Shown here in pieces: positions 1-56,604 of a stretch of 64,000 bases of DNA (within the stretch, counting starts at the first letter, position 1; every line of letters starts with the position of its first letter). The DNA lies in assembly GCA_038064415.1 (NCBI GenBank), contig JBBTTD010000001.1, positions 13,738-77,737 of the forward strand, in the 5' to 3' direction. Made by a program: the position numbers and the translations under genes. Below the pieces are notes generated by a model. It saw only the letters and a list, made by a program, of their open reading frames with translations, ran no database searches and had not been told where the DNA came from. This DNA is from Patescibacteria group bacterium. GTDB taxonomy: Bacteria > Patescibacteriota > Minisyncoccia > Phycocordibacterales > PALSA-1337.

Positions 1-2129
1 TTAGAGGTCTAGAAGATGGCATGGACAGACAGACTCTGTTGGGTGTAACCGGTTCCGGCAAGACATTTACTGTCGCAAATGTTATCGCCAATTATGGTAA
101 ACCAACTTTGGTTATTGCTCACAATAAAACCCTGGCCGCGCAATTAGCACAAGAATACAGAGAATTTTTTCCGGATAATGCCGTGCATTATTTTGTCTCT
201 TATTATGATTATTATCAGCCCGAAGCTTACATACCTTCAAGCGACACATACATTGAAAAAGAAGCGATGATTAATGAAGAGATTGAAAGATTGCGTCACG
301 CTTCAACGCAGGCACTCTTAACTCGCAAAGATGTGATTATTGTCGCGTCAGTTTCTTGTATTTATGGTTTAGGCAGTCCAGAAGAATACGAAAAAGTCAA
401 TTTAAAACTGAAAGTTGGCATGGAGATTTCGCGAGCTGAACTGATTCGCAAATTGGTTGATATTCATTTTGAGCGGACGACAGCTGATTTGAAGTCAGGT
501 CAATTTCGCGCTATCGGAAATACTATTGAAATTATGCCGGTAAACGAAAAGACGATTTATAGATTGGAATATGATGGTGGTTCTATTTCTTTAATTACCG
601 AACTTGATCCAATTTCTCGTTCTGTTCGTCGATCGAGTCAAGGTCCGACCTTCCGTCATCTTACGAAGTCCAATCTTGACTCAATCTATATTTTTCCAGC
701 AAAGCATTTCATTTCCAGCGATGAACAGGGCGAACGTGCTTACAAAACTATTCAAGCGGAACTCGCGGATCGCTTGAAAGTATTGGAAAAAGAGGGAAAA
801 TTGCTTGAAGCTGAACGACTGAAGCGTAGAGTTAAATACGATTTATCTATGATAAAAGAAATCGGCTACACAAATGGTATTGAGAATTATTCACGACATT
901 TTTCCGATAAAATGCCTGGCGAGCCACCAGATTCATTGCTTTCATATTTTCCACATAAAATAATTGGCACTGGTACAAATGCGCGGAATGTTCCTGATTT
1001 TTTGACTATTGTTGACGAATCGCACGTGACCATTCCTCAATTGAATGGTATGTATGCTGGCGATGCTTCACGCAAAAATACTTTGGTTGAGCACGGTTTT
1101 CGTCTACCTTCAGCCAAAGACAATCGCCCATTGAGATTTGATGAATTTTTAGAGCGAATTGGTCCGATGATTTACACTTCTGCCACGCCAGGAAAATATG
1201 AGGCAGAGACTAGTAATCAAGTAGTTGAACAGGTCATTCGTCCAACAGGATTGGTTGATCCGATTGTTGAAATTAGACCGATTAGGGAAAGTAAACGAGG
1301 AGTTGGTGCGTATTCTTATGAAGGACCGCAGTCTCTTGGCACAAAGCGTGAGGCAGTTATAACGGTCCCTCATAAGAATACGCACCAACTCCTCGTTTAC
1401 CATGGCCAAATCTTTGATTTTATCAATGAAGCGGAAAAAACTATTAAAAAAGGCGATCGAGTTTTGGCAACGACTTTAACTAAAAAAATGGCGGAGGATT
1501 TATCCGAATTCTTAAAAGAAAAAAATATTAAGTCCACTTATTTGCATAGTGACGTAAAAACCATTGAACGCATCAATATTTTGACGGACTTTCGCAAAGG
1601 GAGATATGATATTTTAGTTGGTGTCAATTTGTTGCGTGAGGGTCTGGATTTGCCCGAAGTTTCATTGATTGGAATATTGGACGCAGACAAAGAAGGATTT
1701 CTTCGATCTGAAACTTCACTTGTTCAAACTATTGGTCGTGCCGCGCGTAACTCCGCTGGTCGAGTCATTCTTTATGCCGATAATTTGACTGGTTCTATGG
1801 ATCGCGCGATCAAGGAGACCAATCGTCGTAGAGTTATTCAAGTAGCTTATAATGAAAAACATGGGATAACCCCAAAAACCATTAAAAAAGCGATTCATGA
1901 CATTACCGATCAATTACGCACTAAACACGATAAAGCTGTTGACGAATTGGTCAAAATTGATGAAGAATTGGCGCGTGTCAATCCAAAATTATTGATGAAG
2001 CAGAAACAGGATGCTATGGAAGAAGCCGTCAAACAATTGGATTTTGAGACTGCGGCGCTGATACGAGATGAATTGATAAAGCTTGAGAAAATCAAACAAT
2101 TAGATAGAAAGATGAAGGCTAGACCTTAA
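1..2129 (+). CDS. uvrB: Excinuclease ABC subunit B (UvrB), 5' end runs off the window start
   Basis: ORF 21..2129 translates to LLGVTGSGKTFT (Walker A), the helicase motifs and a C-terminal UvrB/UvrC interaction motif (ALIRDELIKLE). The frame stays open upstream of the first Met (codons for GLEDG), so the N-terminus is truncated by the window edge. Confidence 0.9.
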   Translation, partial: RGLEDGMDRQTLLGVTGSGKTFTVANVIANYGKPTLVIAHNKTLAAQLAQEYREFFPDNAVHYFVSYYDYYQPEAYIPSSDTYIEKEAMINEEIERLRHASTQALLTRKDVIIVASVSCIYGLGSPEEYEKVNLKLKVGMEISRAELIRKLVDIHFERTTADLKSGQFRAIGNTIEIMPVNEKTIYRLEYDGGSISLITELDPISRSVRRSSQGPTFRHLTKSNLDSIYIFPAKHFISSDEQGERAYKTIQAELADRLKVLEKEGKLLEAERLKRRVKYDLSMIKEIGYTNGIENYSRHFSDKMPGEPPDSLLSYFPHKIIGTGTNARNVPDFLTIVDESHVTIPQLNGMYAGDASRKNTLVEHGFRLPSAKDNRPLRFDEFLERIGPMIYTSATPGKYEAETSNQVVEQVIRPTGLVDPIVEIRPIRESKRGVGAYSYEGPQSLGTKREAVITVPHKNTHQLLVYHGQIFDFINEAEKTIKKGDRVLATTLTKKMAEDLSEFLKEKNIKSTYLHSDVKTIERINILTDFRKGRYDILVGVNLLREGLDLPEVSLIGILDADKEGFLRSETSLVQTIGRAARNSAGRVILYADNLTGSMDRAIKETNRRRVIQVAYNEKHGITPKTIKKAIHDITDQLRTKHDKAVDELVKIDEELARVNPKLLMKQKQDAMEEAVKQLDFETAALIRDELIKLEKIKQLDRKMKARP

Positions 2130-2991: not shown

Positions 2992-3075
2992 AAATAGAGG
3001 TCCGACCCCCATTTCGGAAGACAGGATCAGACCTTAGCGCAGAATTACCTAAGGTTTTACATTCATTTTTCACAT

Positions 3076-9273: not shown

Positions 9274-10881
9274 ATGATAGTACTTTCAGTTTTTTGCTAT
9301 AATTGTGCCATGGATTCAAGTATTCATTTGATAGTGCATAATGTTGCGGCGATTATTTCATCTGTAATGTTAATAGGTTTAGCTTTGTTTCTCGTTATCA
9401 ATAATCCACGCTCGCGGAGTACTATAATTTTTTCGTTGATGTTAGTTGCCGTTTTGGTTTTCATAGTTTCTCATGTAATCGGTGTAAACATAGTAGACCC
9501 AAATTTATCACGTGTCGTTTTTATGTTTAATTTGAGCATATTTTTTATTGGAGTTTTTATTTTTCATTCAATTATCGCGACAATTGGAAAAGAGAAAGAA
9601 CGGAAACTGATTCTGATTGCGATTTATGTAGCGAGTATTTTGATAACGGTCTTTTTTGTTTTTAATCCAGATCTATTTTTACTTCCTTCTATATCAAAAA
9701 TGTATTTTCCAAATTACTACGTGCCAGGGGTGTTAAATTGGCTACGCCTGGTATTTCTATATGGTCTTATGGTTCCATATTCTTTACTTGAGCTATTTCT
9801 AGCTTATCGCCAATCACAAAATAATATCGAACGCCAACAACTTAAGTATTTTATCATCGCTATATTTGTCGGTTTTTCTTTTGGTTTTATTCCAAATTTT
9901 CTAGTATACAATATTCCAGTTGATCCTCTCTGGGGAATACTCCTTGTTTCATTATTTGTGATCCCAATTGTATACGGTTCAGTAAGATATAGACTTTTCA
10001 ATATAAAAATCATAGCCACGCAAGCATTTTTCTATAGTCTTGCAATAGGAATTGTCGGAGGATTTATTTCTTTACTTAACTACTCAAACCAGTGGATTTC
10101 TGTGTTTTTCCCAAATTTTCCCATTTGGATAACCGCGCTTATATCAGCATTTTTTGCTGTTACCATTAGTGTTTTCGCATGGCGCAAACTTCGTGAAAGT
10201 GATCTCCTAAAATACGAGTTTGTCACCACAGTCACGCACAAATTCCGCACTCCGCTGACTCATATCAAATGGGCCTCGGAAAATCTATCCAAAAGCGCTC
10301 TATCAACCGATGATCAGACCCAAGTCAAATACATCCAATCAGCTGATGAAAAACTGGTTGAATTGACCAGATTGCTCATGAATATATCCGAGACTGAAAG
10401 CAGTGGCTATGAATACAAAATGGTTCGTAGTGACCTATCCGCTTTAGTCATTGAAGTAGAAAAAGGTATGCGTGAACAATACTTAATCAAAAATATGACA
10501 GTCACCGAAAAGATTGAGCCAGCGTTATATGCAGAATTTGACCAGTCTCGCATCAAATTTATTGTGCAGACATTTATAGAAAACGCCATTCGCTATACTA
10601 GAGAAGGAGGTACTATCCTTATCTCTCTCACTTCAAGAGGACATGATGTGGTATTTTCAGTCAAGGATACAGGTGTCGGCATCGCCAAAGACGAGCTGTC
10701 TCTGATTTTCTCCAAGTTCTATCGCAGTAAAGAAGCACGCCAAGTTGATACTGAAGGCATGGGTATCGGTCTATATGTCTCAAAAGAGATTATCTCAAGA
10801 CACAACGGCAAGATCTGGGCGGAGTCGGATGGATCTGGTAAAGGTAGTACTTTCAGTTTTTTACTTCCCGTGATCAAATAA
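9274..10881 (+). CDS. Sensor histidine kinase with a polytopic (about 7 TM) N-terminal domain
   Basis: Multi-TM N-terminus, then an H-box (FRTPLTHIKWASENL) and HATPase_c (GIGLYVSKEIISRHNGKIWAESDGSGKGSTFSF). No cognate regulator is adjacent. Confidence 0.8.
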   Translation: MIVLSVFCYNCAMDSSIHLIVHNVAAIISSVMLIGLALFLVINNPRSRSTIIFSLMLVAVLVFIVSHVIGVNIVDPNLSRVVFMFNLSIFFIGVFIFHSIIATIGKEKERKLILIAIYVASILITVFFVFNPDLFLLPSISKMYFPNYYVPGVLNWLRLVFLYGLMVPYSLLELFLAYRQSQNNIERQQLKYFIIAIFVGFSFGFIPNFLVYNIPVDPLWGILLVSLFVIPIVYGSVRYRLFNIKIIATQAFFYSLAIGIVGGFISLLNYSNQWISVFFPNFPIWITALISAFFAVTISVFAWRKLRESDLLKYEFVTTVTHKFRTPLTHIKWASENLSKSALSTDDQTQVKYIQSADEKLVELTRLLMNISETESSGYEYKMVRSDLSALVIEVEKGMREQYLIKNMTVTEKIEPALYAEFDQSRIKFIVQTFIENAIRYTREGGTILISLTSRGHDVVFSVKDTGVGIAKDELSLIFSKFYRSKEARQVDTEGMGIGLYVSKEIISRHNGKIWAESDGSGKGSTFSFLLPVIK

Positions 10882-20077: not shown

Positions 20078-20275
20078 ATGCAGGGTAAAATAAAGACTCT
20101 CACCGAAAAAGGATTTGGTTTCATTGCTCGCGAAGGCGAGGCAAAGGATCTCTTCTTTCACTCAAACGATTTGAGCGGTGTTTCTTTCAATGAACTTCAG
20201 GTTGGCGATATGGTCAGCTTTGAAATAGTCGAAGGACCAAAGGGGCCAAGTGCCAAGAATGTCGCCAAGATATAA
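20078..20275 (+). CDS. cspA: Cold-shock protein (CspA family)
   Basis: MQGKIKTLTEKGFGFIAREGEAKDLFFH contains the RNP1 and RNP2 motifs. The start is set at the internal Met where CSD homology begins. Confidence 0.85.
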   Translation: MQGKIKTLTEKGFGFIAREGEAKDLFFHSNDLSGVSFNELQVGDMVSFEIVEGPKGPSAKNVAKI

Positions 20276-20291
20276 ATCTTCGCTTCAAAAG

Positions 20292-20329
20292 AAAACCGCT
20301 CTAAGAGAAATCTCGGAGCGGTTTTCTTT
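20292..20329 (+). terminator. Rho-independent terminator of cspA
   Basis: AAAACCGCTC-taagagaaatctcg-GAGCGGTTTT followed by CTTTT. Confidence 0.7.
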
Positions 20330-20335
20330 TAAAAT

Positions 20336-20379
20336 CAAGGTCGGACCTTGGGTGATTTGGAGCTAAGGTCCGACCTTGA
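20336..20379. repeat. Palindromic element family 1: two AAGGTCGGACCTT-type units in inverted orientation
   Basis: CAAGGTCGGACCTTGGgtgatttggagCTAAGGTCCGACCTTG. The exact reverse complement of this 43-bp sequence recurs at 50806-50850. Confidence 0.8.
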
Positions 20380-20416
20380 TTTTACGAACTTCCTCCATAT
20401 TTGTTATACTATCTTC

Positions 20417-22582
20417 ATGATTCCAGACAAGTTTCTCAAGCCCTACGATCCTACCAGCACGGAAGACAGGATTTATGCCCTCTGGGAAAAGAGTGGCTTT
20501 TTCAATCCCGATAAATTGCCCGAGCGTAATAAAAAAGGCGAACCATTTTCCATAGTTTTGCCACCACCGAATGTCACTGGAGTTTTACATATGGGCTCGG
20601 CATTGATGCTTGCCATTGAGGATATTATGGTTCGCTACGCGCGAATGAAAGGGAAACAGACGCTTTGGATTCCTGGGACTGATCATGCCGCTATTGCCAC
20701 TCAAGCGGTTGTGGAAAAAGACATTCAAAGAAAAGAAGACAAATCTCGTCATGATCTCGGCAGGGAAGAAATGCTCCGACGTATTGGTACGCATGTTCAA
20801 ACTACCCATGACATTATTGTAAGTCAGATGCGTAAGATGGGCGCTTCAATTGATTGGTCTCGGGAAGCTTTCACTCTTGACGATAAGCGCAATCTGGCCG
20901 TTCGCACGGCTTTCAAAAAAATGTATGATGATGGTTTGATATACCGTGGTTATCGCGTAGTCAATTGGGATCCAAAAGGTCAGACTACTATTTCTGATGA
21001 TGAAATAGTGTACGAAACAAGAAAGACGAAACTTTACACCTTCAGGTACTCAAAAGATATACCTATTTCTATCTCCACGACGCGTCCGGAGACCAAATTG
21101 GGTGATACTGCTATCGCCGTAAATCCTGACGATCCGCGCTACAAAAAATATATCGGCGAGGAGTTTGACGCGGTCTTTGCTGGTGAACCGATTCACCTCA
21201 AAGTCATTGCCGATGCTTCAGTAGAATTAGAATTCGGCACCGGCGCTCTCGGTGTAACTCCCGCTCATTCAATTGCTGATTGGGAAATGGCCCAAAGGCA
21301 CAGTTTACCACTGAAACAAGTTATTAATGAATACGCAAAAATGACTGTTGGATTGGATGGCATAAAAGATAAAAAGACAACCGAAGCGCGCGAAGCCGTG
21401 GTTGACTGGCTCAAAAAAGAAGGTTTATTGGAGAAAGAAGAAGATATTGAACATAATATAAGTTTAGCGGAAAGAACGGGTGGAATCGTGGAACCATTGC
21501 CAAAATTGCAGTGGTTTGTGGCGGTTAATAGAGAATTCAAAAGAGAAGGGGTGACTTTCACATTAAAACAATTAATGACGCGTGTCGTTGAAACGGATCA
21601 AGTCCAATTCATTCCCGATCGTTTCAGAGATGTTTATCATCATTGGATCGGAAGTCTTCGTGATTGGTGTATTTCAAGGCAGATTTGGTATGGGCACAGG
21701 ATTCCAGTTTGGTACAAAAATCAGGAGATCTATGTCGGAGTTGAAGCGCCAAAAGGAAATGATTGGATCCAAGATGAAGACACTCTTGATACATGGTTTT
21801 CATCTGGTCTTTGGACTTTCTCAACTCTTGGTTGGCCAGACGAAAAAGAATTTAACATCAATCGCAAGTATCACCCAACCACTATTTTAGAAACTGGTTC
21901 TGATATTATCTTTTTTTGGGTAGCGCGCATGATTCTGATGAGTACTTATTTATTAGACGAAGTCCCGTTCAAGACGGTATATCTTCATGGTCTAGTTCGT
22001 GATGGTAAAGGTAGGAAAATAAGTAAGTCGCTCGGTAATAACATAGACCCTCTTGAAATGATCATTAAATATGGAGCTGACGCGGTGCGCATGGCACTTA
22101 TTGTAGCCGTCGGTCCTGGTAATGACAGTAAGGTTGATGAGCAGAAGATTAAGGCATATAAATTATTTAGTAACAAAATTTGGAATATTGCCAGATTTAT
22201 TTTGAGTGCAACCGAGAATGTCAAATATTCAGCTGAATTTTCAGAGTGGAGCGATACTGATAAGAAACACATTGAGGTCTTGAATGATTTGATTAAAGAG
22301 ATTACTTCCGAAATGGATGAATACAAGTTTTATTTAGTTGGCGAAAAGCTTTATCACTATGTCTGGCATGAATTTGCCGATAAAATCATTGAGGAAAGTA
22401 AGTCAATAATTGACGGCACTGACGAAAAAGTCAAAAATTCCCGTATTCAATTTTTGTTTTACGCTTTACGCGCGATCCTTAGACTACTTCATCCATTTAT
22501 GCCATTTGTGACAGAGGAGATTTGGCGGGAAGTGGGGAAGAGTAAATCATTATTGATGGTAGAGGAGTGGCCGAGATATTAA
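20417..22582 (+). CDS. valS: Valyl-tRNA synthetase (short form, no C-terminal coiled coil)
   Basis: PPPNVTGVLHMGSA (HIGH-region variant), the WIPGTDHAAIATQ motif and KISKSLGN (KMSKS). The start is moved to the Met at 20417 because the upstream part of the ORF overlaps the palindromic element. Confidence 0.8.
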   Translation: MIPDKFLKPYDPTSTEDRIYALWEKSGFFNPDKLPERNKKGEPFSIVLPPPNVTGVLHMGSALMLAIEDIMVRYARMKGKQTLWIPGTDHAAIATQAVVEKDIQRKEDKSRHDLGREEMLRRIGTHVQTTHDIIVSQMRKMGASIDWSREAFTLDDKRNLAVRTAFKKMYDDGLIYRGYRVVNWDPKGQTTISDDEIVYETRKTKLYTFRYSKDIPISISTTRPETKLGDTAIAVNPDDPRYKKYIGEEFDAVFAGEPIHLKVIADASVELEFGTGALGVTPAHSIADWEMAQRHSLPLKQVINEYAKMTVGLDGIKDKKTTEAREAVVDWLKKEGLLEKEEDIEHNISLAERTGGIVEPLPKLQWFVAVNREFKREGVTFTLKQLMTRVVETDQVQFIPDRFRDVYHHWIGSLRDWCISRQIWYGHRIPVWYKNQEIYVGVEAPKGNDWIQDEDTLDTWFSSGLWTFSTLGWPDEKEFNINRKYHPTTILETGSDIIFFWVARMILMSTYLLDEVPFKTVYLHGLVRDGKGRKISKSLGNNIDPLEMIIKYGADAVRMALIVAVGPGNDSKVDEQKIKAYKLFSNKIWNIARFILSATENVKYSAEFSEWSDTDKKHIEVLNDLIKEITSEMDEYKFYLVGEKLYHYVWHEFADKIIEESKSIIDGTDEKVKNSRIQFLFYALRAILRLLHPFMPFVTEEIWREVGKSKSLLMVEEWPRY

Positions 22583-22583
22583 T

Positions 22584-22602
22584 GTGAAGGTCAGGCCTTC
22601 AC
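22584..22602. repeat. Palindromic element family 2 (GTGAAGGTCAGGCCTTCAC)
   Basis: Begins 2 nt after the valS stop. Near-identical copies occur at 39635-39653 (reverse orientation, 1 mismatch) and 56586-56604. Confidence 0.75.
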
Positions 22603-32283: not shown

Positions 32284-32323
32284 AGCGAGGTCCGACCTTG
32301 ATATATTGAGGTCGGACCTCGCT
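32284..32323. repeat. Palindromic element family 1 (AGCGAGGTCCGACCTTGatatatTGAGGTCGGACCTCGCT)
   Basis: A perfect hairpin directly after the rpoB stop. It shares the GCGAGGTC(C/G)GACCTCGC core with 37762-37786. Confidence 0.8.
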
Positions 32324-32343: not shown

Positions 32344-32886
32344 ATGAATAAAAAAATTATTTTGGGGGTTATAATTATAGCGATATTAGTCGTTGCTGGT
32401 TGGTATCTATTCAAACCACGCCTTGCGTGTTGGCCATATTGTCCTAATATGACTAATCAGAATAGAGAGGAGATAAAACAATCGGCACTTGAAGTACAAA
32501 ATAATCAGATTAATAAGTCAAATAATTCTTTTTCTGTTCAAGATCTTGCTTATATTAATCAAAAATACGGATTTTCTCTTATTTTTCCAATTTCATGGAC
32601 AGATTATCAGGTTAATCAGAGAAATCAGGCAATGACAGAATTTGGGTTTTATGTCCCAGATGCCTTTCCAAAATTTCAAGCTCTATTTTATGTAGGTGTT
32701 ACTAAAGATGAACAAAGTTGTGAAGAATGGTCGAATCCTAAGACTGATGAGCCACACGATTATTGTATTATAAAAGTTGATGGAAATATCTATCATTATG
32801 GGAAAGCACAAGACATTATTCCAATACTTGACCGAAAATATCAAGATATTGATTTGATCATAAAAACATTTAAATTTATTAAATAA
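32344..32886 (+). CDS. Hypothetical membrane-anchored protein inserted between rpoB and rpoC
   Basis: 180 aa with an N-terminal TM helix and no recognisable domain. It lies in the normally tight rpoB-rpoC junction. Confidence 0.5.
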   Translation: MNKKIILGVIIIAILVVAGWYLFKPRLACWPYCPNMTNQNREEIKQSALEVQNNQINKSNNSFSVQDLAYINQKYGFSLIFPISWTDYQVNQRNQAMTEFGFYVPDAFPKFQALFYVGVTKDEQSCEEWSNPKTDEPHDYCIIKVDGNIYHYGKAQDIIPILDRKYQDIDLIIKTFKFIK

Positions 32887-36564: not shown

Positions 36565-36567
36565 TGG

Positions 36568-36692
36568 CGAAGGAGGCAGAATGTGTGCAGATACTGATTA
36601 ACAAAAGGTTATCATGATATTAGTTAAACTACCACGTCGTCTAACTTCTTAGTTGTTAATCAGTATCTGCACACATTCTGCCTCCTTTGCTT
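36568..36692. repeat. 125-bp element with perfect 36-38 bp terminal inverted repeats and a 46-nt loop
   Basis: GCGAAGGAGGCAGAATGTGTGCAGATACTGATTAACAA ... TTGTTAATCAGTATCTGCACACATTCTGCCTCCTTTGC, beginning 4 nt after the rpoC stop. Confidence 0.75.
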
Positions 36693-36749: not shown

Positions 36750-37724
36750 ATGCGCAAGATAATTATTAAAGAAGGCCCCCTTGTCTTTCTTCGGAATGTC
36801 TTGTCTATGGAAATCATCGCCGCCCTATTCTTTTTTGGCTTGTCATTTATAAGTAATTATGGCCAATTGTACCAAAATTGGGGTTTTTCTGATTACATCA
36901 GATTTGACCTTTTTGAAATATTTATCTTTTCTGTCTTTCAGTTAGTATATATCTCACTTTTATTTTTTGATTGGTATTTTACCAACTATGAAATTAACGG
37001 AAAGGAGATAATCAAAAAATCAGGTTTACTATTTCGCCGTCGTAAAGCTGTAAGTTTGGCTGATGTAGCTTCAGTAGAAATAAACCAGTCGCCGATAAGT
37101 CGGATGATGTCTCATGCCACCATCATTCTTGAACACGCCAATGGTCATATGACAAAAATCAGAAATGTCTCTAATTTTGATGAATATATTTACCTAATCA
37201 AGAGTATGGTTCAAGAAGCTTCTGGACGGACCTTGACACAAGATCCGAAAGTTTTATTGGAAAAGGGCGAAGGATTTTTTATTGAATTTAAACAGACGCT
37301 TCGTTATGACGCGCGCAAAGGTGAAATTAGCAGGGAATTAGAGAAAATGGTTCTCAAAACGATTGTTGCCTTTCTGAACGCAGAAGGAGGTACTCTACTG
37401 ATTGGTGTAAATGATGATGCTGAAATTGTTGGTCTAGATAACGATTACAAAACACTGACCAAAAAAGATCGTGATGGGTTTGAGAATCATATGACTATGT
37501 TAGTAAAAACTCTGATTGGTTTGTCATTCACAAAATATGTCACGGTGCGGTTTGATTCAATTGACGGTAAAGATATTTGCATTGTGATAGTTAAAGAAGG
37601 TCACAAACCGGCGTATCTACACAATGGTGATAAAAAAGAAGACTTCTTTGTGCGAGTAGGGAACTCAACGCAACCTTTTTCTATGAGTGAGGCGGAGGAG
37701 TATATCAAGACGCATTGGAAATAA
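36750..37724 (+). CDS. Membrane bPH (YdbT/DUF304-like) domain fused to a Schlafen/AlbA_2 (PF04326-like) putative nucleic-acid-binding domain
   Basis: Two TM helices and a bacterial PH-like segment, then GEGFFIEFKQTL ... TIVAFLNAEGGTLLIGVNDDAEIVGLDND, the diagnostic AlbA_2/SLFN core. Confidence 0.5.
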   Translation: MRKIIIKEGPLVFLRNVLSMEIIAALFFFGLSFISNYGQLYQNWGFSDYIRFDLFEIFIFSVFQLVYISLLFFDWYFTNYEINGKEIIKKSGLLFRRRKAVSLADVASVEINQSPISRMMSHATIILEHANGHMTKIRNVSNFDEYIYLIKSMVQEASGRTLTQDPKVLLEKGEGFFIEFKQTLRYDARKGEISRELEKMVLKTIVAFLNAEGGTLLIGVNDDAEIVGLDNDYKTLTKKDRDGFENHMTMLVKTLIGLSFTKYVTVRFDSIDGKDICIVIVKEGHKPAYLHNGDKKEDFFVRVGNSTQPFSMSEAEEYIKTHWK

Positions 37725-37761: not shown

Positions 37762-37786
37762 CTTAGCGAGGTCGGACCTCGCTAAG
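37762..37786. repeat. Palindromic element family 1 (CTTAGCGAGGTCGGACCTCGCTAAG, a perfect 25-bp palindrome)
   Basis: Sits between the convergent SLFN-like gene and typA; a partial extra copy CCGACCTCGC lies at 37805-37814. Confidence 0.8.
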
Positions 37787-41965: not shown

Positions 41966-42101
41966 TTAAAAAGTAATCAAAGATTAAAGACGAACTTAGT
42001 AAACATGAATTTCGTAGAAGTTATGTTGCTTCACCACATTATTTTCATTGAGGGTTCTGCATAACTTCTACAAAATTCATGTTTACTAAGTTCACGACAT
42101 A

Positions 42102-43872: not shown

Positions 43873-44131
43873 ATCATGTCGTCGCCGAAGAATATATGGT
43901 TTTATTGCCACGACCGCCATCATTTTACTTTCAACAGGAAGTTTAGCATTTCTTGTTGCGACTTCATCTGCCGTTTTCATGTATGCCGATAGTATTGAAA
44001 AGAGGGAAATCAGAATTCAAAATAACCTTAATCAGCAAGCTTGCCAAGATACTCTACGAATAATGAATGCCAAGGATTATTTCTTAAATGTTGACATTCA
44101 ACTTAGTGATTTTGGATGTATAGCGAGGTGA
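43847..44131 (+). CDS. Hypothetical small membrane protein (possible minor pilin)
   Basis: Hydrophobic N-terminal helix plus a C-terminal Cys pair (QQACQD ... GC), reminiscent of a pilin D-region disulfide. Confidence 0.35.
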   Translation: MFKILKIYKSCRRRRIYGFIATTAIILLSTGSLAFLVATSSAVFMYADSIEKREIRIQNNLNQQACQDTLRIMNAKDYFLNVDIQLSDFGCIAR

Positions 44132-44139
44132 GACCTTGC

Positions 44140-44935
44140 TTATGAAATAAAAAAATGGCCCGGACATTCGCTTCATTGCTGAAACAAATGCCGGACCAGA
44201 TCGTGAGAGTCTCCATCATCGCTTGTAAGTATCGGAATTAATCCTGTCTTAGATTGAACTCCGTCTTAGACCTTCCGAGTTTAGCCTTGCGGTTTATTTC
44301 GTTAAGTCATCTTGCAATTGATTCTGGAATTCCTCTACCTTTTTTAGGGGCAGAAGGACATTGTGAGTTGGTGTCCTCACCGTGATTTTTCGCTTGCGCT
44401 ACTATTTCATGTCCTGGCGTGAACGAACTGATACGGTGTTCGCTTCGTCGGTCTATTGTTCTTTGTTCCCTCCACTGGCGATCTTACGATCGTTGTATGA
44501 AAGAATGTTCGGAACTCATTCTGGACTACCTAGTCCAGTGCATACCTAGTCATTGCTTCTTGATGATATTGATGCTTTTGAGGCACCAACATTCATTGGC
44601 ATGAGTACTTTTTACATTAGCACCCACTGAACTCTGTATGGGTTTTGCAACCTTTTTGACCTTGCGGTCATACAAGTAATGTTTAGTGTCATCAGTTGTT
44701 TTCGTATCTTACCTTAGTTGAATTTCTTCTTCTTTGGTTTGAAACTATACAATTGTAAACATTCTTTGTATTTTGGGCGCCTTTCTCTCTAGGCTCCCCG
44801 GTTTCACACCTTGACTTGATGTGAGACCGTAAACTTTTAAGGAACAACTCCACTTGGAGCGTGAAGAGGATGATACACCCACCAAGCAATCCTCGTCAAG
44901 CGTTTTTAAAATACAAATTATTTTAGGAATCTTGT
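44140..44935. other. About 800-bp ORF-free, GC-richer intergenic region with multiple local hairpins (candidate structured RNA or decayed gene)
   Basis: No ORF above about 60 aa with any recognisable product on either strand. Local hairpins include CTGGACTA-cc-TAGTCCAG, GGTTTCACA...TGTGAGACC and GACC-ttgc-GGTC. This gap is exceptional in an otherwise compact window. Confidence 0.4.
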
Positions 44936-45012: not shown

Positions 45013-46122
45013 ATGTCACTCTCAATCGGCATCGTCGGTCTCCCAAATGTTGGAAAATCAACCTTATTCAACGCGCTCACAAAAAAGAGCGTCCTAGTGG
45101 CAAATTATCCATTTGCGACAATTGATCCATCGGTCGGTGTCGTGGCGGTCCCGGATGATCGACTCTGGAAGTTGAGTGAATTCTCAAAATCAGCTAAAAC
45201 TATTCCTGCCGTCGTGGAATTCGTAGACATTGCGGGTTTAGTCAAAGGCGCGTCTGTCGATGAGGGACTCGGTAATCAATTCCTTTCAAATATCCGTGAG
45301 ACTGACGCTATCGCCGAAGTGGTGAGGATTTTTGAGGATGACAACATTATCCATGTTGATGGTAAAATCAATCCACTCAAGGATATTGAAGTCATAAATT
45401 TAGAACTTATTTTGGCTGATTTGCAGACAGTTTCAAAAAGGAGCTCAAATCTTGGTAAAGAAGTTAAGGCTGGCAAAAAAGAGGCGATTATTGAACAGGG
45501 TTTGATTCAGAAGTTAAAAATCGCGCTTGAAACGGGAAAATTCGCTTCTACCGTCATAGCTGATGAATTTGAGAAACCTTTTTTGAAATCACTTCACCTT
45601 CTGACATCTAAACCATTTATGTATGTTTTGAACAAGAAATCGGGTGGCAAAAATTTAGATGAATTTCAAGGTCCGACCTTGGATGAAAGATATATCTCGC
45701 TGATGGCGTTTTTTAAAGAAGTCAATGCTTCATGGGTAATTGTTGATGCCGGGATTGAACAGGAGCTCAAAGATATTGATGATAAAGATAAAAAAGAACT
45801 TCGCGAAGGTCTTGGCGCGAATGATGACGGGATTAATAATTTGATCAAAAAAGGCCACGAGCTTTTAAATTTGATTACTTACTTCACGACCGGGGAAGAC
45901 GAAAGTCGTGCCTGGACGATTAAAAAAGGTTGGACCGCGCCTGAAGCTGGTACCGCAATTCATGGTGATTTTAAGGATAAATTTATCCGCGCGGAAGTTA
46001 TTGAGTGGGATAAATTACTTGTCGCTGGTTCATTTGGCGTGGCGCGTGAAAAAGGACTTCTCCGCACGGAGGGAAAAGAGTATGTGGTCAAAGATGGGGA
46101 TGTGATGGAGTTTAAGATTTAG
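45013..46122 (+). CDS. ychF: Ribosome-binding ATPase YchF (Obg family)
   Basis: IGIVGLPNVGKSTLFNALT, G-domain motifs and a C-terminal TGS domain. Confidence 0.85.
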   Translation: MSLSIGIVGLPNVGKSTLFNALTKKSVLVANYPFATIDPSVGVVAVPDDRLWKLSEFSKSAKTIPAVVEFVDIAGLVKGASVDEGLGNQFLSNIRETDAIAEVVRIFEDDNIIHVDGKINPLKDIEVINLELILADLQTVSKRSSNLGKEVKAGKKEAIIEQGLIQKLKIALETGKFASTVIADEFEKPFLKSLHLLTSKPFMYVLNKKSGGKNLDEFQGPTLDERYISLMAFFKEVNASWVIVDAGIEQELKDIDDKDKKELREGLGANDDGINNLIKKGHELLNLITYFTTGEDESRAWTIKKGWTAPEAGTAIHGDFKDKFIRAEVIEWDKLLVAGSFGVAREKGLLRTEGKEYVVKDGDVMEFKI

Positions 46123-46530: not shown

Positions 46531-49482
46531 ATGATTACACTTATGAAAAATTCTGGCGAAAAAGTCAATCCAAAAGCGTTAAAATTACCTGCTTATGACC
46601 ATTCAAAGATAGAACCTAAGTGGCAAAAACTTTGGGAAAAACAAAAGTTTGACCAGGCCAGAGAAGATCCAAAGAAAAAGAAGTTTTACGGTTTAATTGA
46701 ATTTCCGTATCCATCCGGCGAAGGACTGCATGTTGGACATATTCGCAGTAATACAGCCATGGATATTATTGCTCGAAAGCGTCGAAGAGAAGGCTATGAA
46801 GTTTTGTTTCCTATCGGTTGGGATGCTTTTGGTCTGCCAACCGAAAATTACGCTATTAAGACTGGTATTCAGCCCGCCATAGTTACCAAAAAAAACACTG
46901 ATACATTTCGCCGACAATTGAAAGCGCTGGGTTTTTCTTTTGATTGGTCGCGTGAAATAGATACGACTGATCCCAAATACTATAAATGGACGCAGTGGAT
47001 ATTTTTGCAATTCTTTAAAAAAGGGCTGGCTTATAAAAAGAAAATGGCTATCAATTGGTGTCCAAAGGATATGATTGGTCTAGCAAATGAAGAAGTTGTA
47101 AATGGTTGTTGTGAACGATGTGGCACGCCCGTGGAAAAACGAGAGAAGGAACAATGGATGCTGGCTATTACTAAATATGCCGATCGATTAGACAGAGATT
47201 TAGATGAAGTTGATTTTCTGGAAAAGATTAAAATTCAACAAAGGAATTGGATAGGGAAGAGTGAGGGTGCGGAGATTGGGTTTAAGTTTGTCATTCCCGC
47301 CCTTGATGGAAGTCGAGGACATGCTCCAACGGGAATCCAAGATCACATTGCGAATTTTGTCTTGCTTCATGGATTTACCGCCACGCCAGATGATGATTTT
47401 CACCCTTGGCTCAAGAAAAAACTTGAAAATTTAGGATATAAAGTGCAAGCGCCGAAATTGCCGAATACTGAAAAACCCACAGAAAATGAGCAGGTTGAAT
47501 TTGTCCTAGATAATGTCAAGTTTGATGAAAATACTGTCTTACTTGGTCATAGTCTTGGTTCTGTGGTTGCTTTAAAGGTTTTAGAAAAACTTAATAAAAA
47601 GATCGCAGGACTTGTGACTGTCGGTGGATTTATTGATACAAACTTCAAAGATCATGACAGAAATTTTGCTGAAAGATTTGGATGGGACTTTGATTTTAAT
47701 AAAATAAAATTAAATGTTAGTTTTATTCGTGTTTTACACGATAAAAATGATGTAGCGATTACTGATGGTCAAGCCAAGAGATTAGCCACTGCTTTGGGAG
47801 TAAATGTTATTGAGCGCATGGCTAATGAGGGTCATTTTTGCGCAAAAGAAGAACCAGCTATATTTGAAGTCATCATACCAAGTATAAAAGTCTTCACGAC
47901 TCGCCCAGATACATTATTTGGCGTGACTTATCTGGTTCTCGCGCCTGAACATCAATTGGTAAAAGAACTTTTGCCAAATGTTCAAAATAAGAAAGAAGTT
48001 GAAGATTATATTTCCAAAACTAAAAAGGAAACTGATATTGAACGCGCTGACGCTTCAAAAGAAAAAACAGGCGTTGAGTTGAAAGGAATTAAGGTTATAA
48101 ATCCAGCAAATAACGAAGAACTACCAGTTTGGATTGCTGATTATGTTTTGGTTGACTACGGCACTGGCGCTGTAATGGCTGTGCCGGCGCATGATGAGAG
48201 GGATAAACAATTTGCCCAAAAATATAGTCTGCCAACCAAAGAAATTATTCTCGCAGATAAAAAAGAAATAATTACTGAATTTGGAAAATCAGTTACCACC
48301 TACAAACTTCGTGACTGGGTGTTTTCACGCCAAAGATACTGGGGTGAGCCCATCCCTGTAGTGCATTGCGAACAATGTGGGATTGTTCCCGTGCCAGAAA
48401 AAGATTTGCCGGTTAAATTACCGAAAGTAAAAAATTATCAGCCGACGCAGACTGGAGAATCACCGCTAGCTTCAATTGGAAAGTGGGTGAATACTAAATG
48501 TCCGAAATGTAAAGGCAAAGCTCGTCGCGAAACAGATACAATGCCTCAATGGGCTGGCTCAAGCTGGTATTATCTGCGCTACGCTGATTCAAAAAATAGT
48601 AAAGTTTTTGCCGGTAAAGATAGACTGAAGTATTGGACGCCAGTAGACTGGTACAACGGTGGAATGGAGCATACAACATTGCATCTGCTTTATTCTCGTT
48701 TTTGGCATAAATTCTTATTTGATTTAGGTTTAGTGCCGACAAAAGAACCATATCAAAAAAGAACCTCACATGGACTCATTCTAGCCGAAGGTGGCGCTAA
48801 AATGTCAAAATCAAGAGATAATATTGTCAGTCCCGACGATATTGTGAAGATTGTTGGCGCGGACTCTTTGCGTCTTTACGAAATGTTTATGGGACCCTTT
48901 GACCAACCAATCGTCTGGAATACGGATAATATTGCCGGGGTCAGGAGGTTTATTGAGCGAGTGTGGAAAATGAGAGAAAAAGTCGTTCAAAAAATGGACG
49001 AAAAGATTGATGATTTTGTGTTGATCAACAAGATTATCCACAAAGCTATCAAAAAAGTCAGCGACGATATTGAAGCGATGAGATTTAATACTGCCATCAG
49101 CGCGCTCATGATTACATTCAATGAACTTGAAAAATTCAGAGTTGTTGATATAGAACAATATGGAGTTTTTCTTAAATTACTGGCACCATTTGCGCCACAT
49201 GTGACTGAAGAATTGTGGGCATCTCTGAATCATAAAAATTCTATTCATACGACTGAATGGCCGATGTATGATCCAGTTTTGGCGATTGATTCACAGACAA
49301 CTATCGTTGTCCAAATAAATGGCAAAATGCGTGGCTCATTCACTGTTCCAATTGATATCAGTAAGGAAGAATTAGAAAATCGCGCGCGGACATTACCAGA
49401 ATCCGCGAAGTGGTTGGAAGGGAAGAGTATCATGAAGATAGTTGTTGTTCCCAATAAGTTAGTCAATTTTGTCATAAAGTAG
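46531..49482 (+). CDS. leuS: Leucyl-tRNA synthetase with an inserted alpha/beta serine-hydrolase (YdeN/RBBP9-like) domain
   Basis: Class I motifs (HVGH, KMSKS), a CP1 editing domain (TTRPDTLFGVTYLVLAPEH) and a C-terminal anticodon-binding region. About 195 extra residues (aa 254-449) lie between NWIGKSEGAEIGF and the editing domain. They include LLHGFTATPDDDFHPWL, GHSLG (GxSxG), a conserved Asp and ANEGHF. Confidence 0.85.
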   Translation: MITLMKNSGEKVNPKALKLPAYDHSKIEPKWQKLWEKQKFDQAREDPKKKKFYGLIEFPYPSGEGLHVGHIRSNTAMDIIARKRRREGYEVLFPIGWDAFGLPTENYAIKTGIQPAIVTKKNTDTFRRQLKALGFSFDWSREIDTTDPKYYKWTQWIFLQFFKKGLAYKKKMAINWCPKDMIGLANEEVVNGCCERCGTPVEKREKEQWMLAITKYADRLDRDLDEVDFLEKIKIQQRNWIGKSEGAEIGFKFVIPALDGSRGHAPTGIQDHIANFVLLHGFTATPDDDFHPWLKKKLENLGYKVQAPKLPNTEKPTENEQVEFVLDNVKFDENTVLLGHSLGSVVALKVLEKLNKKIAGLVTVGGFIDTNFKDHDRNFAERFGWDFDFNKIKLNVSFIRVLHDKNDVAITDGQAKRLATALGVNVIERMANEGHFCAKEEPAIFEVIIPSIKVFTTRPDTLFGVTYLVLAPEHQLVKELLPNVQNKKEVEDYISKTKKETDIERADASKEKTGVELKGIKVINPANNEELPVWIADYVLVDYGTGAVMAVPAHDERDKQFAQKYSLPTKEIILADKKEIITEFGKSVTTYKLRDWVFSRQRYWGEPIPVVHCEQCGIVPVPEKDLPVKLPKVKNYQPTQTGESPLASIGKWVNTKCPKCKGKARRETDTMPQWAGSSWYYLRYADSKNSKVFAGKDRLKYWTPVDWYNGGMEHTTLHLLYSRFWHKFLFDLGLVPTKEPYQKRTSHGLILAEGGAKMSKSRDNIVSPDDIVKIVGADSLRLYEMFMGPFDQPIVWNTDNIAGVRRFIERVWKMREKVVQKMDEKIDDFVLINKIIHKAIKKVSDDIEAMRFNTAISALMITFNELEKFRVVDIEQYGVFLKLLAPFAPHVTEELWASLNHKNSIHTTEWPMYDPVLAIDSQTTIVVQINGKMRGSFTVPIDISKEELENRARTLPESAKWLEGKSIMKIVVVPNKLVNFVIK

Positions 49483-49495
49483 GCCGTATAGTAGA

Positions 49496-49602
49496 CAAGA
49501 AAACAGTATGCGCATTTTATCTCAAGACAAGAGAGTCTTGTCTCGCGAGTCACATAACTACCATCTTTGGATTTGAGATAAAATGCGCATACTGTTTTCT
49601 TG
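49496..49602. repeat. 107-bp element with perfect 30-bp terminal inverted repeats and a 47-nt loop
   Basis: CAAGAAAACAGTATGCGCATTTTATCTCAA ... TTGAGATAAAATGCGCATACTGTTTTCTTG, starting 14 nt after the leuS stop. The loop contains an inner hairpin GACAAGA..TCTTGTC. Confidence 0.75.
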
Positions 49603-49755
49603 CTTAAAATACACTTTGTTTATATTTGACAACGATAAGACAATACTGTAGTGTATACCAATCAAGCCTGGGTGTGGGATTACGCACATTCCCACAAGAT
49701 TGACTTTGTTACAAGCTAGTGATACAAATATATAAATTATTTATTAGCAACTATT

Positions 49756-50805: not shown

Positions 50806-50850
50806 CCAAGGTCGGACCTTAGCTCCAAATCACCCAAGGTCCGACCTTGG
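50806..50850. repeat. Palindromic element family 1 (exact reverse complement of the 20336-20379 copy), flanked by an A-run and a T-run
   Basis: AAAAAACCAAGGTCGGACCTTagctccaaatcaccCAAGGTCCGACCTTGGTTTTTTT has the shape of a bidirectional terminator. Confidence 0.8.
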
Positions 50851-56585: not shown

Positions 56586-56604
56586 GTGGAGGTCAGACCT
56601 TCAC
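56586..56604. repeat. Palindromic element family 2 (GTGGAGGTCAGACCTTCAC)
   Basis: Lies in the divergent region upstream of alaS. Confidence 0.7.

Follow-up and report, generated by a model that had tools for sequence, protein, structure and literature searches.

A probable REP/REPIN-type repeat family in a Patescibacteria contig and a RAYT-like transposase gene linked to its core in other Patescibacteria

What placed a set of short palindromes between, and in places within, the genes of a Patescibacterium? The question is raised by a DNA stretch of 64,000 nucleotides (the window), taken from a 125-kb contig of the 0.1-µm fraction of Hainich groundwater, the relatives of which are Paceibacterota/Parcubacteria. 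The element in question lies at 20336–20378, and its 11-nt core, AGGTCSGACCT, recurs along the window. The original prediction described these copies as a family of palindromes resembling repetitive extragenic palindromic (REP) sequences or Rickettsia palindromic elements (RPEs). The answer reached here is that they are very probably REP repeats and REP doublets forming hairpins (REPINs), which are probably non-autonomous and likely moved by a Y1/HUH enzyme of the REP-associated tyrosine transposase (RAYT) type.

The core is far more frequent in the window than its composition allows. Nine exact cores and 12 cores with at most one mismatch are present, compared with 0.31 expected, and the number 12 was reached in none of 100 shuffles. 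The core density is about one per 6.5 kb, and a further exact core follows the dnaJ stop codon about 6.8 kb past the end of the window. The claim that GC-rich elements stand out from an AT-rich background has to be softened, since the background is only moderately AT-rich (40% GC). The four main copies that had been listed, at 20336, 32284, 37762 and 50806, are all present. The last of them was also said to be the exact reverse complement of the first. This is true over 43 nt (20336–20378 and 50807–50849, about 30 kb apart), including the 15-nt loop, with the start of the second copy one base later than given. Two subfamilies can be distinguished. Subfamily A, CAAGGTCSGACCTTG, comprises the copies at 20336 and 50807 and two single cores within uvrB and ychF. 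Subfamily B, (AATTCT)TAGCGAGGTCSGACCTCGCTA, comprises the copies at 32284 and 37762, a degenerate copy at 44121 and the copy after dnaJ.

Three of the four main copies are inverted doublets. The REPIN at 20336–20378 consists of the arms CAAGGTCGGACCTT and AAGGTCCGACCTTG around the loop GGGTGATTTGGAGCT, and its stem is lengthened by TAAAAT/ATTTTA flanks (−37.3 kcal/mol as RNA, z = −9.4). It lies 3' of cspA and of cspA's own terminator hairpin (20284–20333); a class-I tRNA synthetase gene has its in-frame ATG (20417) about 39 nt further downstream. The REPIN at 50807–50849 (−35.5 kcal/mol) is flanked by AAAAAAAC and GTTTTTTT and starts 13 nt after the stop codon of the sigma4-HARE gene. Its A7/T7 flanks give it the look of a bidirectional terminator. 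The subfamily-B REPIN at 32284–32323, AGCGAGGTCCGACCT-TGATATATTG-AGGTCGGACCTCGCT, begins 5 nt after the rpoB stop codon and ends 20 nt before an open reading frame (ORF) of 180 amino acids (−35.6 kcal/mol). The z scores of the doublets are about −9 to −10. The fourth copy is a single REP of subfamily B at 37762–37786, a 25-nt palindrome, CTTAGCGAGGTCGGACCTCGCTAAG, that shares its 5' flank AATTCTTAGCGAGGTC with the 32284 copy (−19 to −20.6 kcal/mol, z about −5 to −6). It separates the convergent SLFN/AlbA_2 gene (stop at 37724) from typA/bipA on the minus strand, and its stem supplies the bipA stop codon (TAG, 37782–37784). The gene contexts had been read correctly, with copies following cspA, rpoB, the SLFN/AlbA_2 gene and the sigma4-HARE gene, and all clear intergenic copies lie 5–61 nt 3' of a stop codon. 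Placement directly after the stop codon holds for rpoB and the sigma4-HARE gene, whereas at cspA the gene's own terminator intervenes. Perfect hairpins had been claimed for all copies; the three doublets and the 37762 singlet fold strongly, but a copy at 2998 has no significant fold (z = −0.8).

Could the repeats be an artefact of one assembly? Five Logan assemblies all break at window position 50836, inside the 50807 repeat, as would be expected of a repeat that exceeds the assembler's word size. Nevertheless, since all five are independent and each includes the first arm and the loop downstream of the sigma4-HARE gene, the repeat is real. The window-specific loop GACCTTGGGTGATTTGGAGCTAAGGTC had no match in the metagenome scan, probably because assemblies break inside the repeat.

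Close relatives carry empty sites. The exact core was found nowhere in 524 kb from 80 syntenic rpoB loci of relatives that are 78–95% identical in the C-terminal part of RpoB. In the eleven closest relatives (87–95% identity), the spacer downstream of rpoB is 9–37 nt long, compared with 65 nt in the window, which equals a relative-type spacer plus the 40-nt REPIN. The core was also absent from three 21-kb syntenic loci (63 kb) of relatives whose sigma4-HARE protein is 88–90% identical; there, the 50807 site is occupied by unrelated, terminator-like hairpins. The ychF core lies in an indel-prone loop, where two of three close relatives are four codons shorter and the third has unrelated codons. 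The copies missing from the syntenic loci therefore appear to be lineage-specific insertions. Together with the window's two identical copies in opposite orientation, the empty sites show a lineage-specific gain, and they agree with the mobility that the original prediction had considered possible.

Several other observations were made at these loci. In one relative (L216, 11039–11231), a different long hairpin follows the sigma4-HARE gene. The rpoB-rpoC spacer of other relatives (L146, L151, L155, L172, L204 and L211) contains other short repeated or palindromic motifs, such as ACGAAT-type words in L146 and L151 and GCTATMAGCTAT in L211, and this spacer seems to attract repeats in this lineage. 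The 180-residue ORF between rpoB and rpoC in the window (32344–32886) has no Pfam match, and an ORF of 125–284 residues occupies this place in several close relatives. Over 20 kb, two Hainich strains (L128 and L129, wells H41 and H51) share about 99.5% identity, the exception being the grpE-dnaK segment (L128 14229–15275, L129 14229–15803), which has been replaced and encodes different small proteins.

The core has a wide distribution in other genomes. A GTDB scan with one genome per species and the pattern AGGTCSGACCT-N(4-34)-AGGTCSGACCT gave at least 119 loci of 8 kb each, compared with about 4 expected by chance (our own estimate, from pattern content). The counts of doublets, units, ORFs and flanking genes outside the window are from the 119 loci listed. 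Judged by record title, most of these loci belong to Patescibacteria of many classes, and a further share are unclassified 'bacterium' metagenome-assembled genomes (MAGs). Among the matches listed, the patescibacterial labels include Saccharibacteria, Paceibacterota, Minisyncoccia, Nomura-, Kaiser-, Lloyd-, Taylor- and Nealsonbacteria, as well as Zambryski-, Yonath-, Moran-, Yanofsky-, Curtiss- and Beckwithbacteria. About 16 of the 119 listed loci carry other labels. Six of these are high-GC actinobacteria, a myxobacterium, a halobacterium and Bacteroides, and ten are MAGs labelled 'Omnitrophota' or 'Gammaproteobacteria', which we suspect to be mis-assigned. A scan of 2.9 million viral contigs found only two doublets, and the repeat is therefore not a phage feature.

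The form of the doublets indicates that the repeat acts as a single-strand structure. The logo of 309 units is R-AGGTCSGACCT-Y, and nothing is conserved beyond the R and Y. Pairs are inverted in 105 cases and direct in 36, the latter mostly in tandem arrays. Nine doublets are perfect palindromes without a loop. Furthermore, 69 units extend the stem past the core by at least three base pairs, compared with about 11 expected, and the extending sequences are genome-specific yet complementary. The excess of inverted pairs, the loopless palindromes and the complementary extensions thus point to a hairpin at the level of the strand and not to two duplex sites. Copies may also share a spacer, as in the family L021/L031/L040/L058/L091.

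Which enzyme could act on such hairpins? The first lead was HUH-like codons beside a doublet in locus L063, followed by ORFs of 223 and 237 amino acids in L063 and L114, both of which match Pfam Y1_Tnp (PF01797) above the cutoff. With tblastn, a homologous gene of 220–240 amino acids was found in 11 of the 119 listed 8-kb loci. Seven of these 11 RAYT-like genes (L063, L042, L087, L045, L114, L062 and L123) have cores at both ends within about 100–130 nt, and the gene in L121, at a contig end, has a core upstream. Such bracketing is rare otherwise. Among 616 genes defined by an ORF proxy, it was seen in nine, seven of which are the transposase genes (two of about 605 for the others). The gene of L062 is preceded by AGCGAGGTCCGACCT...AGGTCGGACCTCGCT, the stem type of subfamily B in the window. 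The protein family has more than 5000 members at E ≤ 1e-5, many of them on contigs of about 1 kb, and some source names read 'transposase' or 'REP element-mobilizing transposase RayT'. Two motifs, N-H-F-H and Y..Y...Y-I-H-L-N-P, characterize it: neither alignment shows any change in the N, both H, the three Y, I, L or N, and the other motif positions are nearly or fully invariant. The AlphaFold (AF2) model of the protein has a predicted local distance difference test score (pLDDT) of 88.7 and a predicted template modeling score (pTM) of 0.86. Its best fold match in the PDB is 4er8_A, the E. coli REP-associated tyrosine transposase with a REP hairpin (E = 6e-7, TMt 0.69), followed by the TnpA proteins of IS608, ISDra2 and IS200.

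Four homologues fetched by protein on long, independent contigs (L219–L222, gene at 10001 in each) share one neighbourhood: recA, a Glucodextran_B-like gene, ftsK, a hypothetical gene, a gene for a protein of about 1100 amino acids, sometimes a TPR gene, the RAYT gene and, further on, rplJ-rplL. The gene is bracketed by CCAAGGGGWCCCCTTGG in L219, ACAGGGTAGTCCTGT in L220, ATAGGGGTACCCTAT in L221 and CAAGGCCSGGCCTTG in L222. Conserved recA-ftsK...rplJL synteny with a palindrome of its own in each genome is the behaviour expected of a domesticated gene. The recA-ftsK...rplJL block does not occur in the rpoB neighbourhood of the window. Genomes with doublets may also have paralogous RAYT-like genes, in L037 (about 222–881), L012 (6762–7379) and L097 (1067–1738 and 4334–4888, two genes within 5 kb). 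These are flanked by other palindromes, GCGTTAGGTCTTGCCTAACGC, GCGGGTGTCCAACACCCGC and GTTGCTTAACTWAGTTAAGCAAC.

The proposed mechanism combines these results. The unit is a short palindrome around R-AGGTCSGACCT-Y; a single unit makes a REP, and two inverted units that form one long hairpin make a REPIN. By analogy with E. coli RAYT, which cleaves and rejoins REP DNA, the elements are probably non-autonomous and likely depend on a gene elsewhere in the genome, one for a domesticated Y1/HUH single-strand-DNA transposase of RAYT type. On meeting the hairpin in single-stranded DNA, for instance at the replication fork, this enzyme would recognize it, cleave and religate it, and thereby copy or move the element. 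Copies would persist where the hairpin is harmless or useful, that is, 3' of stop codons or in tolerant protein loops where it is read in frame. In RNA, hairpins at 3' ends probably have a secondary role in terminating transcription or protecting the ends. The observations behind this proposal are the over-representation of the core, the identical pair in opposite orientation, the covariation in the hairpins, the adjacency of gene and repeats, the fold assignment and the empty sites.

Several points weigh against this interpretation. Canonical REPs carry GT[AG]G at the 5' base of the hairpin, a tag that the 309-unit logo lacks. Against NCBIfam REP_Tyr_transpos (NF047646), both the L063 and the L114 product stay below the cutoff (36 bits against 80). 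PDB searches by single sequence and by profile gave only a marginal match to ISDra2, the profile not reaching 4er8, so a fold search was needed. Three of the four RAYT homologues picked without regard to the motif have other palindromes on their flanks, which makes AGGTCSGACCT one of several REP classes, and specificity is not a simple function of protein similarity. Finally, neither the 64-kb window nor the 9 kb downstream contains a RAYT-like gene, short upstream contigs having been only partly checked, and a cognate transposase elsewhere in the genome of this organism is assumed. With regard to the tag, atypical REPs lacking GT[AG]G are found with RAYT classes 2.6 and 3 (PMC6006769).

A broader version of the REP/REPIN interpretation would make the repeats part of an ancient, largely vertical REP-RAYT system of Patescibacteria. 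The apex AGGTCSGACCT would be fixed across Saccharimonadia, Paceibacteria and Microgenomatia, the basal stem would co-vary by species, essential genes (gatB, uvrB, topA, ligA and those of tRNA synthetases) would routinely be colonized in frame, and the frequent adjacency of DnaA-box-like TTATCCACA sites would reflect coupling to replication. We offer this only tentatively. If true, ultra-small bacteria would have a system that structures their genomes, and not just an ordinary species-specific REP family.

The copies inside genes bear on both origin and function. The original prediction had noted a copy in ychF, and an exact core with flanks, CAAGGTCCGACCTTG, is indeed found at 45667–45681 (+), where it reads Q-G-P-T-L. 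It had overlooked a second one, CAAGGTCCGACCTTC at 639–653 (+), which contains an exact 14-mer (639–652) and reads Q-G-P-T-F in uvrB. The ORF at 21–2129 encodes UvrB, and its Pfam UvrB_inter match ends at residue 205, just before the motif. The two singlets thus share the reading Q-G-P-T. Elsewhere, 57 of 104 inverted doublets lie inside long ORFs (used as a proxy for genes), in frame and without stop codons, and 37 of these 57 are read as AGG-TCS-GAC-CTY, giving R-S-D-L. Pfam assigned eight of the nine larger doublet-bearing ORFs to housekeeping families, with matches on both sides of the insertion. The families with insertions include GatB, UvrB, TopA, LeuRS, SMC-like and LigA, and the ninth ORF encodes a TPR-repeat protein. 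Orthologues from different genomes have the insertion at the same position (L019/L048, L018/L106, L008/L069, L012/L075 and L022/L124). Published REPs are also found in frame in repair and tRNA-synthetase genes, and some donate stop codons (PMC3733652); similar intragenic behaviour was described in PMC6006769. The comparison of the window repeats with REPs and RPEs is thus borne out by in-frame copies like those of Rickettsia and by RAYT-like genes flanked by the same core in other Patescibacteria.

The strongest alternative is that the elements are purely intrinsic, partly bidirectional terminators that share a stem by descent or selection, with neither mobility nor a transposase. Their position 5–61 nt after stop codons, the A7/T7 flanks of the 50807 copy, the detection of the 32284 copy by a terminator scan and the ordinary terminator-like hairpins at the sigma4-HARE site of relatives are all in its favour. 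However, terminators do not explain exact cores within uvrB and ychF or the 57 of 104 doublets in frame in long ORFs, several of them in Pfam-confirmed housekeeping genes. Only 17 of 105 doublets (about 16%) are followed by a run of at least four T, and doublets are therefore not canonical terminators in general. Moreover, cspA has a terminator of its own ahead of the element, the 15-nt loop is the same in two oppositely oriented copies, the motif is missing from close relatives, and transposase genes are bracketed by cores. A purely terminator origin is therefore unlikely, and termination is best seen as a secondary use of the REP elements. A role in termination, as had been proposed, is plausible for some copies such as 50807 but is not a general property. 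In the window, 50807 has a T7 run, 20336 has TTTT and 37762 has none. A role as terminator or stabilizer is accordingly most plausible for 50807 and may apply to 20336 and 32284. Among the intergenic doublets elsewhere, 28 lie between co-directional, 7 between convergent and 5 between divergent genes, while about half of all doublets are intragenic by the ORF proxy.

Alternatively, the core might be the operator of a dimeric DNA-binding protein, GntR/FadR-like or associated with the nucleoid or the origin, in which case doublets would be paired sites. The core is a 13-bp palindrome with 6-bp half-sites, as is typical of operators bound by dimers. FadR/LldR operators have TGGTCCGACCA-like sequences (literature string matches only), tandem arrays occur, and a DnaA-box-like TTATCCAC lies near cores 11 times against 1.3 expected. 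Against this, the preference for inverted pairs depends on a single central base and the stem extensions covary, both of which indicate a strand-level hairpin. Centre-to-centre spacing is spread over 15–44 nt with local peaks at 24 and 27 nt. Copies lie 3' of or inside genes, not upstream of them as in a regulon, close relatives lack the motif, and the only consistently adjacent protein is the Y1 transposase. We consider an operator quite improbable.

Hardly credible is a tag resembling a DNA uptake sequence (DUS), accumulated through a competence bias in type-IV-pilus-bearing, nucleotide-auxotrophic bacteria. Such a tag would fit a core common to many lineages of the candidate phyla radiation (CPR), its presence between and within genes with a frame bias (37 of 57 R-S-D-L), the frequent inverted pairs after genes, as with Neisseria DUS, and the pilus genes T2SSE/T2SSF in the window. 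However, the density is about one per 6.5 kb compared with about one per kb for known DUS and uptake signal sequences (USS), the core is palindromic whereas known uptake sequences are not, and no copy occurs in the 524 kb and 63 kb of close relatives; intragenic copies resemble insertions (extra codons) rather than accumulated point mutations, and the association with a transposase gene explains the family. Tandem interspersed guide RNA (TIGR) arrays with Tas genes, which occur in CPR bacteria but are described with a different architecture (PMC12045711), and CRISPR were rejected, as the window copies are isolated and arrays elsewhere have constant spacers with periods of 16–27 nt.

Tandem core arrays with constant spacers were seen in L114 (2129–2251), L043 (6277–6337), L096 (243–339) and L123 (655–717), with periods of 16, 25, 27 and 26 nt. 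The array of L114 has eight units and begins 36 nt after the RAYT stop codon. The DnaA-box-like TTATCCAC(A) occurs within 40 nt of REP cores in L063 (6467, 7485), L087 (6330, 7079), L043 (6192–6315), L062 (1639), L068 (379), L088 (301) and L007 (5745), and in L222 downstream of the RAYT gene. The REPs adjacent to it are mostly those flanking the transposase gene, mainly in Saccharibacteria, and none of the window cores has such a neighbour. The site could belong to the element and serve in cleavage or guidance, or it could be a genuine binding site for DnaA. An oriC, suggested by this adjacency, was rejected for the window, where GC skew is monotonic and there is no dnaA context.

The remaining copies in the window are degenerate, and two of them, at 22584–22602 and 56586–56603, were missing, like the uvrB copy, from the original prediction. 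The hairpin at 22584–22602, GTGAAGGTCAGGCCTTCAC, begins 2 nt after the stop codon of the tRNA-synthetase gene (−11.3 kcal/mol, z = −3.1), and its membership is uncertain because of two mismatches to the core. A single copy at 56586–56603, GGAGGTCAGACCTTC, with one mismatch, is the only one in a divergent spacer, and its membership is also uncertain. Two others had been listed as degenerate. The subfamily-B copy at 44121–44140, TAGCGAGGTGAGACCTTGCT, overlaps the stop codon of a 94-residue ORF; it folds at −10 kcal/mol (z = −3.1) and has two mismatches. The doubtful decayed doublet at 2998–3044, AGGTCCGACCC ... GGATCAGACCT (given as 2998–3040), starts 7 nt after the stop codon of a response-regulator gene; it has one near-exact core but, as mentioned, no significant fold.

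The window also contains four unique long perfect hairpins (1291–1400, 36567–36690, 41992–42093 and 49486–49612) with arms of 34–49 nt and loops of about 30–48 nt, the sequences of which are unrelated to the REP core and to one another. The first lies in frame in uvrB and adds about 36 residues between EIRPIRE and HGQIFDF, in the same protein loop that bears a REPIN in the UvrB of L018/L106. Three Logan contigs (L131–L133) all begin at window position 1371, within this hairpin. The other three start 3–27 nt after the stop codons of rpoC, a T2SSF gene and a LeuRS-like gene. An additional Ser_hydrolase/Abhydrolase match is found in the LeuRS-like class-I tRNA synthetase (46531–49482). Its relatives in L214 (5759–9838) and L217 (6187–9744) have NUDIX and HAD matches, and the length varies from 846 to 1359 amino acids among close relatives.

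REP-RAYT systems as such are well known. The present family departs from the canonical picture in lacking the tag, in having one 11-nt apex common to several classes and in frequently colonizing essential genes in frame. Neither this core nor REP-RAYT in Patescibacteria was found described in literature searches, in the supplement of PMC6006769 or in Rfam, in agreement with the earlier view that the motif is not among described families. A literature search for the core string returned only unrelated primer and operator matches, and no paper was found that links Patescibacteria to DNA uptake sequences or, in the sense meant here, to RAYT. In Rfam, the whole window at gathering thresholds gave only tRNAs, and 20270–20420 at permissive E-values gave only sub-threshold generic hairpins (miRNA and leader families), so that no RNA family fits. 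REP/REPIN-RAYT has been studied almost only in Proteobacteria, and here it concerns reduced CPR genomes that are usually described as poor in mobile DNA. Surveys of CPR metagenomes can make use of the 11-nt marker and the family of more than 5000 proteins. Contig breaks that recur in CPR assemblies are explained by the repeats, and short in-frame inserts in essential CPR proteins may stem from repeats and not be functional novelties. A constant hairpin apex with a variable stem also provides a natural system for the study of RAYT specificity. For the window itself, the repeats are ordinary genome furniture.

How do these repeats compare with known systems? Like Neisseria DUS and Haemophilus USS, they are short over-represented words that often form inverted, terminator-like pairs after genes and also occur within genes, but they are much sparser, consist of a palindromic word that is missing from close relatives, and have a link to a transposase. 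With Rickettsia RPEs they share palindromes in frame in housekeeping genes of a reduced-genome, host-dependent bacterium. RPE-1 type elements are 100–150 bp long and specific to Rickettsia, and are not known to have an assigned transposase. In contrast, the present units are 15–45 nt long, occur in a Patescibacterium and are linked to a Y1 transposase, so that they form a different family. Some RPEs have themselves been classed as REPs (PMC3733652). IS200/IS605 elements (IS608, ISDra2) and palindrome-associated transposable elements (PATEs) also combine a Y1 HUH enzyme of the same Pfam family with subterminal hairpins in single-stranded DNA. However, no gene with defined left and right ends moves as a unit here; the gene is syntenic, and the hairpins alone are dispersed.

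The closest likeness is to REPs and REPINs. In Pseudomonas fluorescens SBW25, two inverted REPs and a short spacer form one long hairpin that is presumed to be the replicative unit, and REPINs are about 100 nt long. The copies at 20336 and 50807 share their spacer, as do REPINs within the SBW25 genome. The doublets here are shorter (26–55 nt), have a lower local copy density and include many loopless perfect palindromes. Like the REPs and bacterial interspersed mosaic elements (BIMEs) of E. coli and other proteobacteria, they are short GC-rich palindromes in many copies, single or inverted, and mostly 3' of genes. Unlike in E. coli REPs, conservation is confined to the 11 nt at the apex, with a basal stem that differs by genome. 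REPs have been described as specific to one species (PMC6006769), but a single core here extends across several classes of the superphylum. The protein has the Y1/HUH fold of E. coli RAYT (TnpA_REP), with 4er8 as the best structural match, and its gene is likewise apparently domesticated and syntenic. The protein differs in its length of about 220 amino acids, a C-terminal extension of 70 amino acids and only 14% identity to 4er8. Finally, in seven of 11 cases in other Patescibacteria, the transposase gene is bracketed by the repeats, as in the published REPtron, in which one stable, domesticated gene has its REPs on both sides (PMC6006769).

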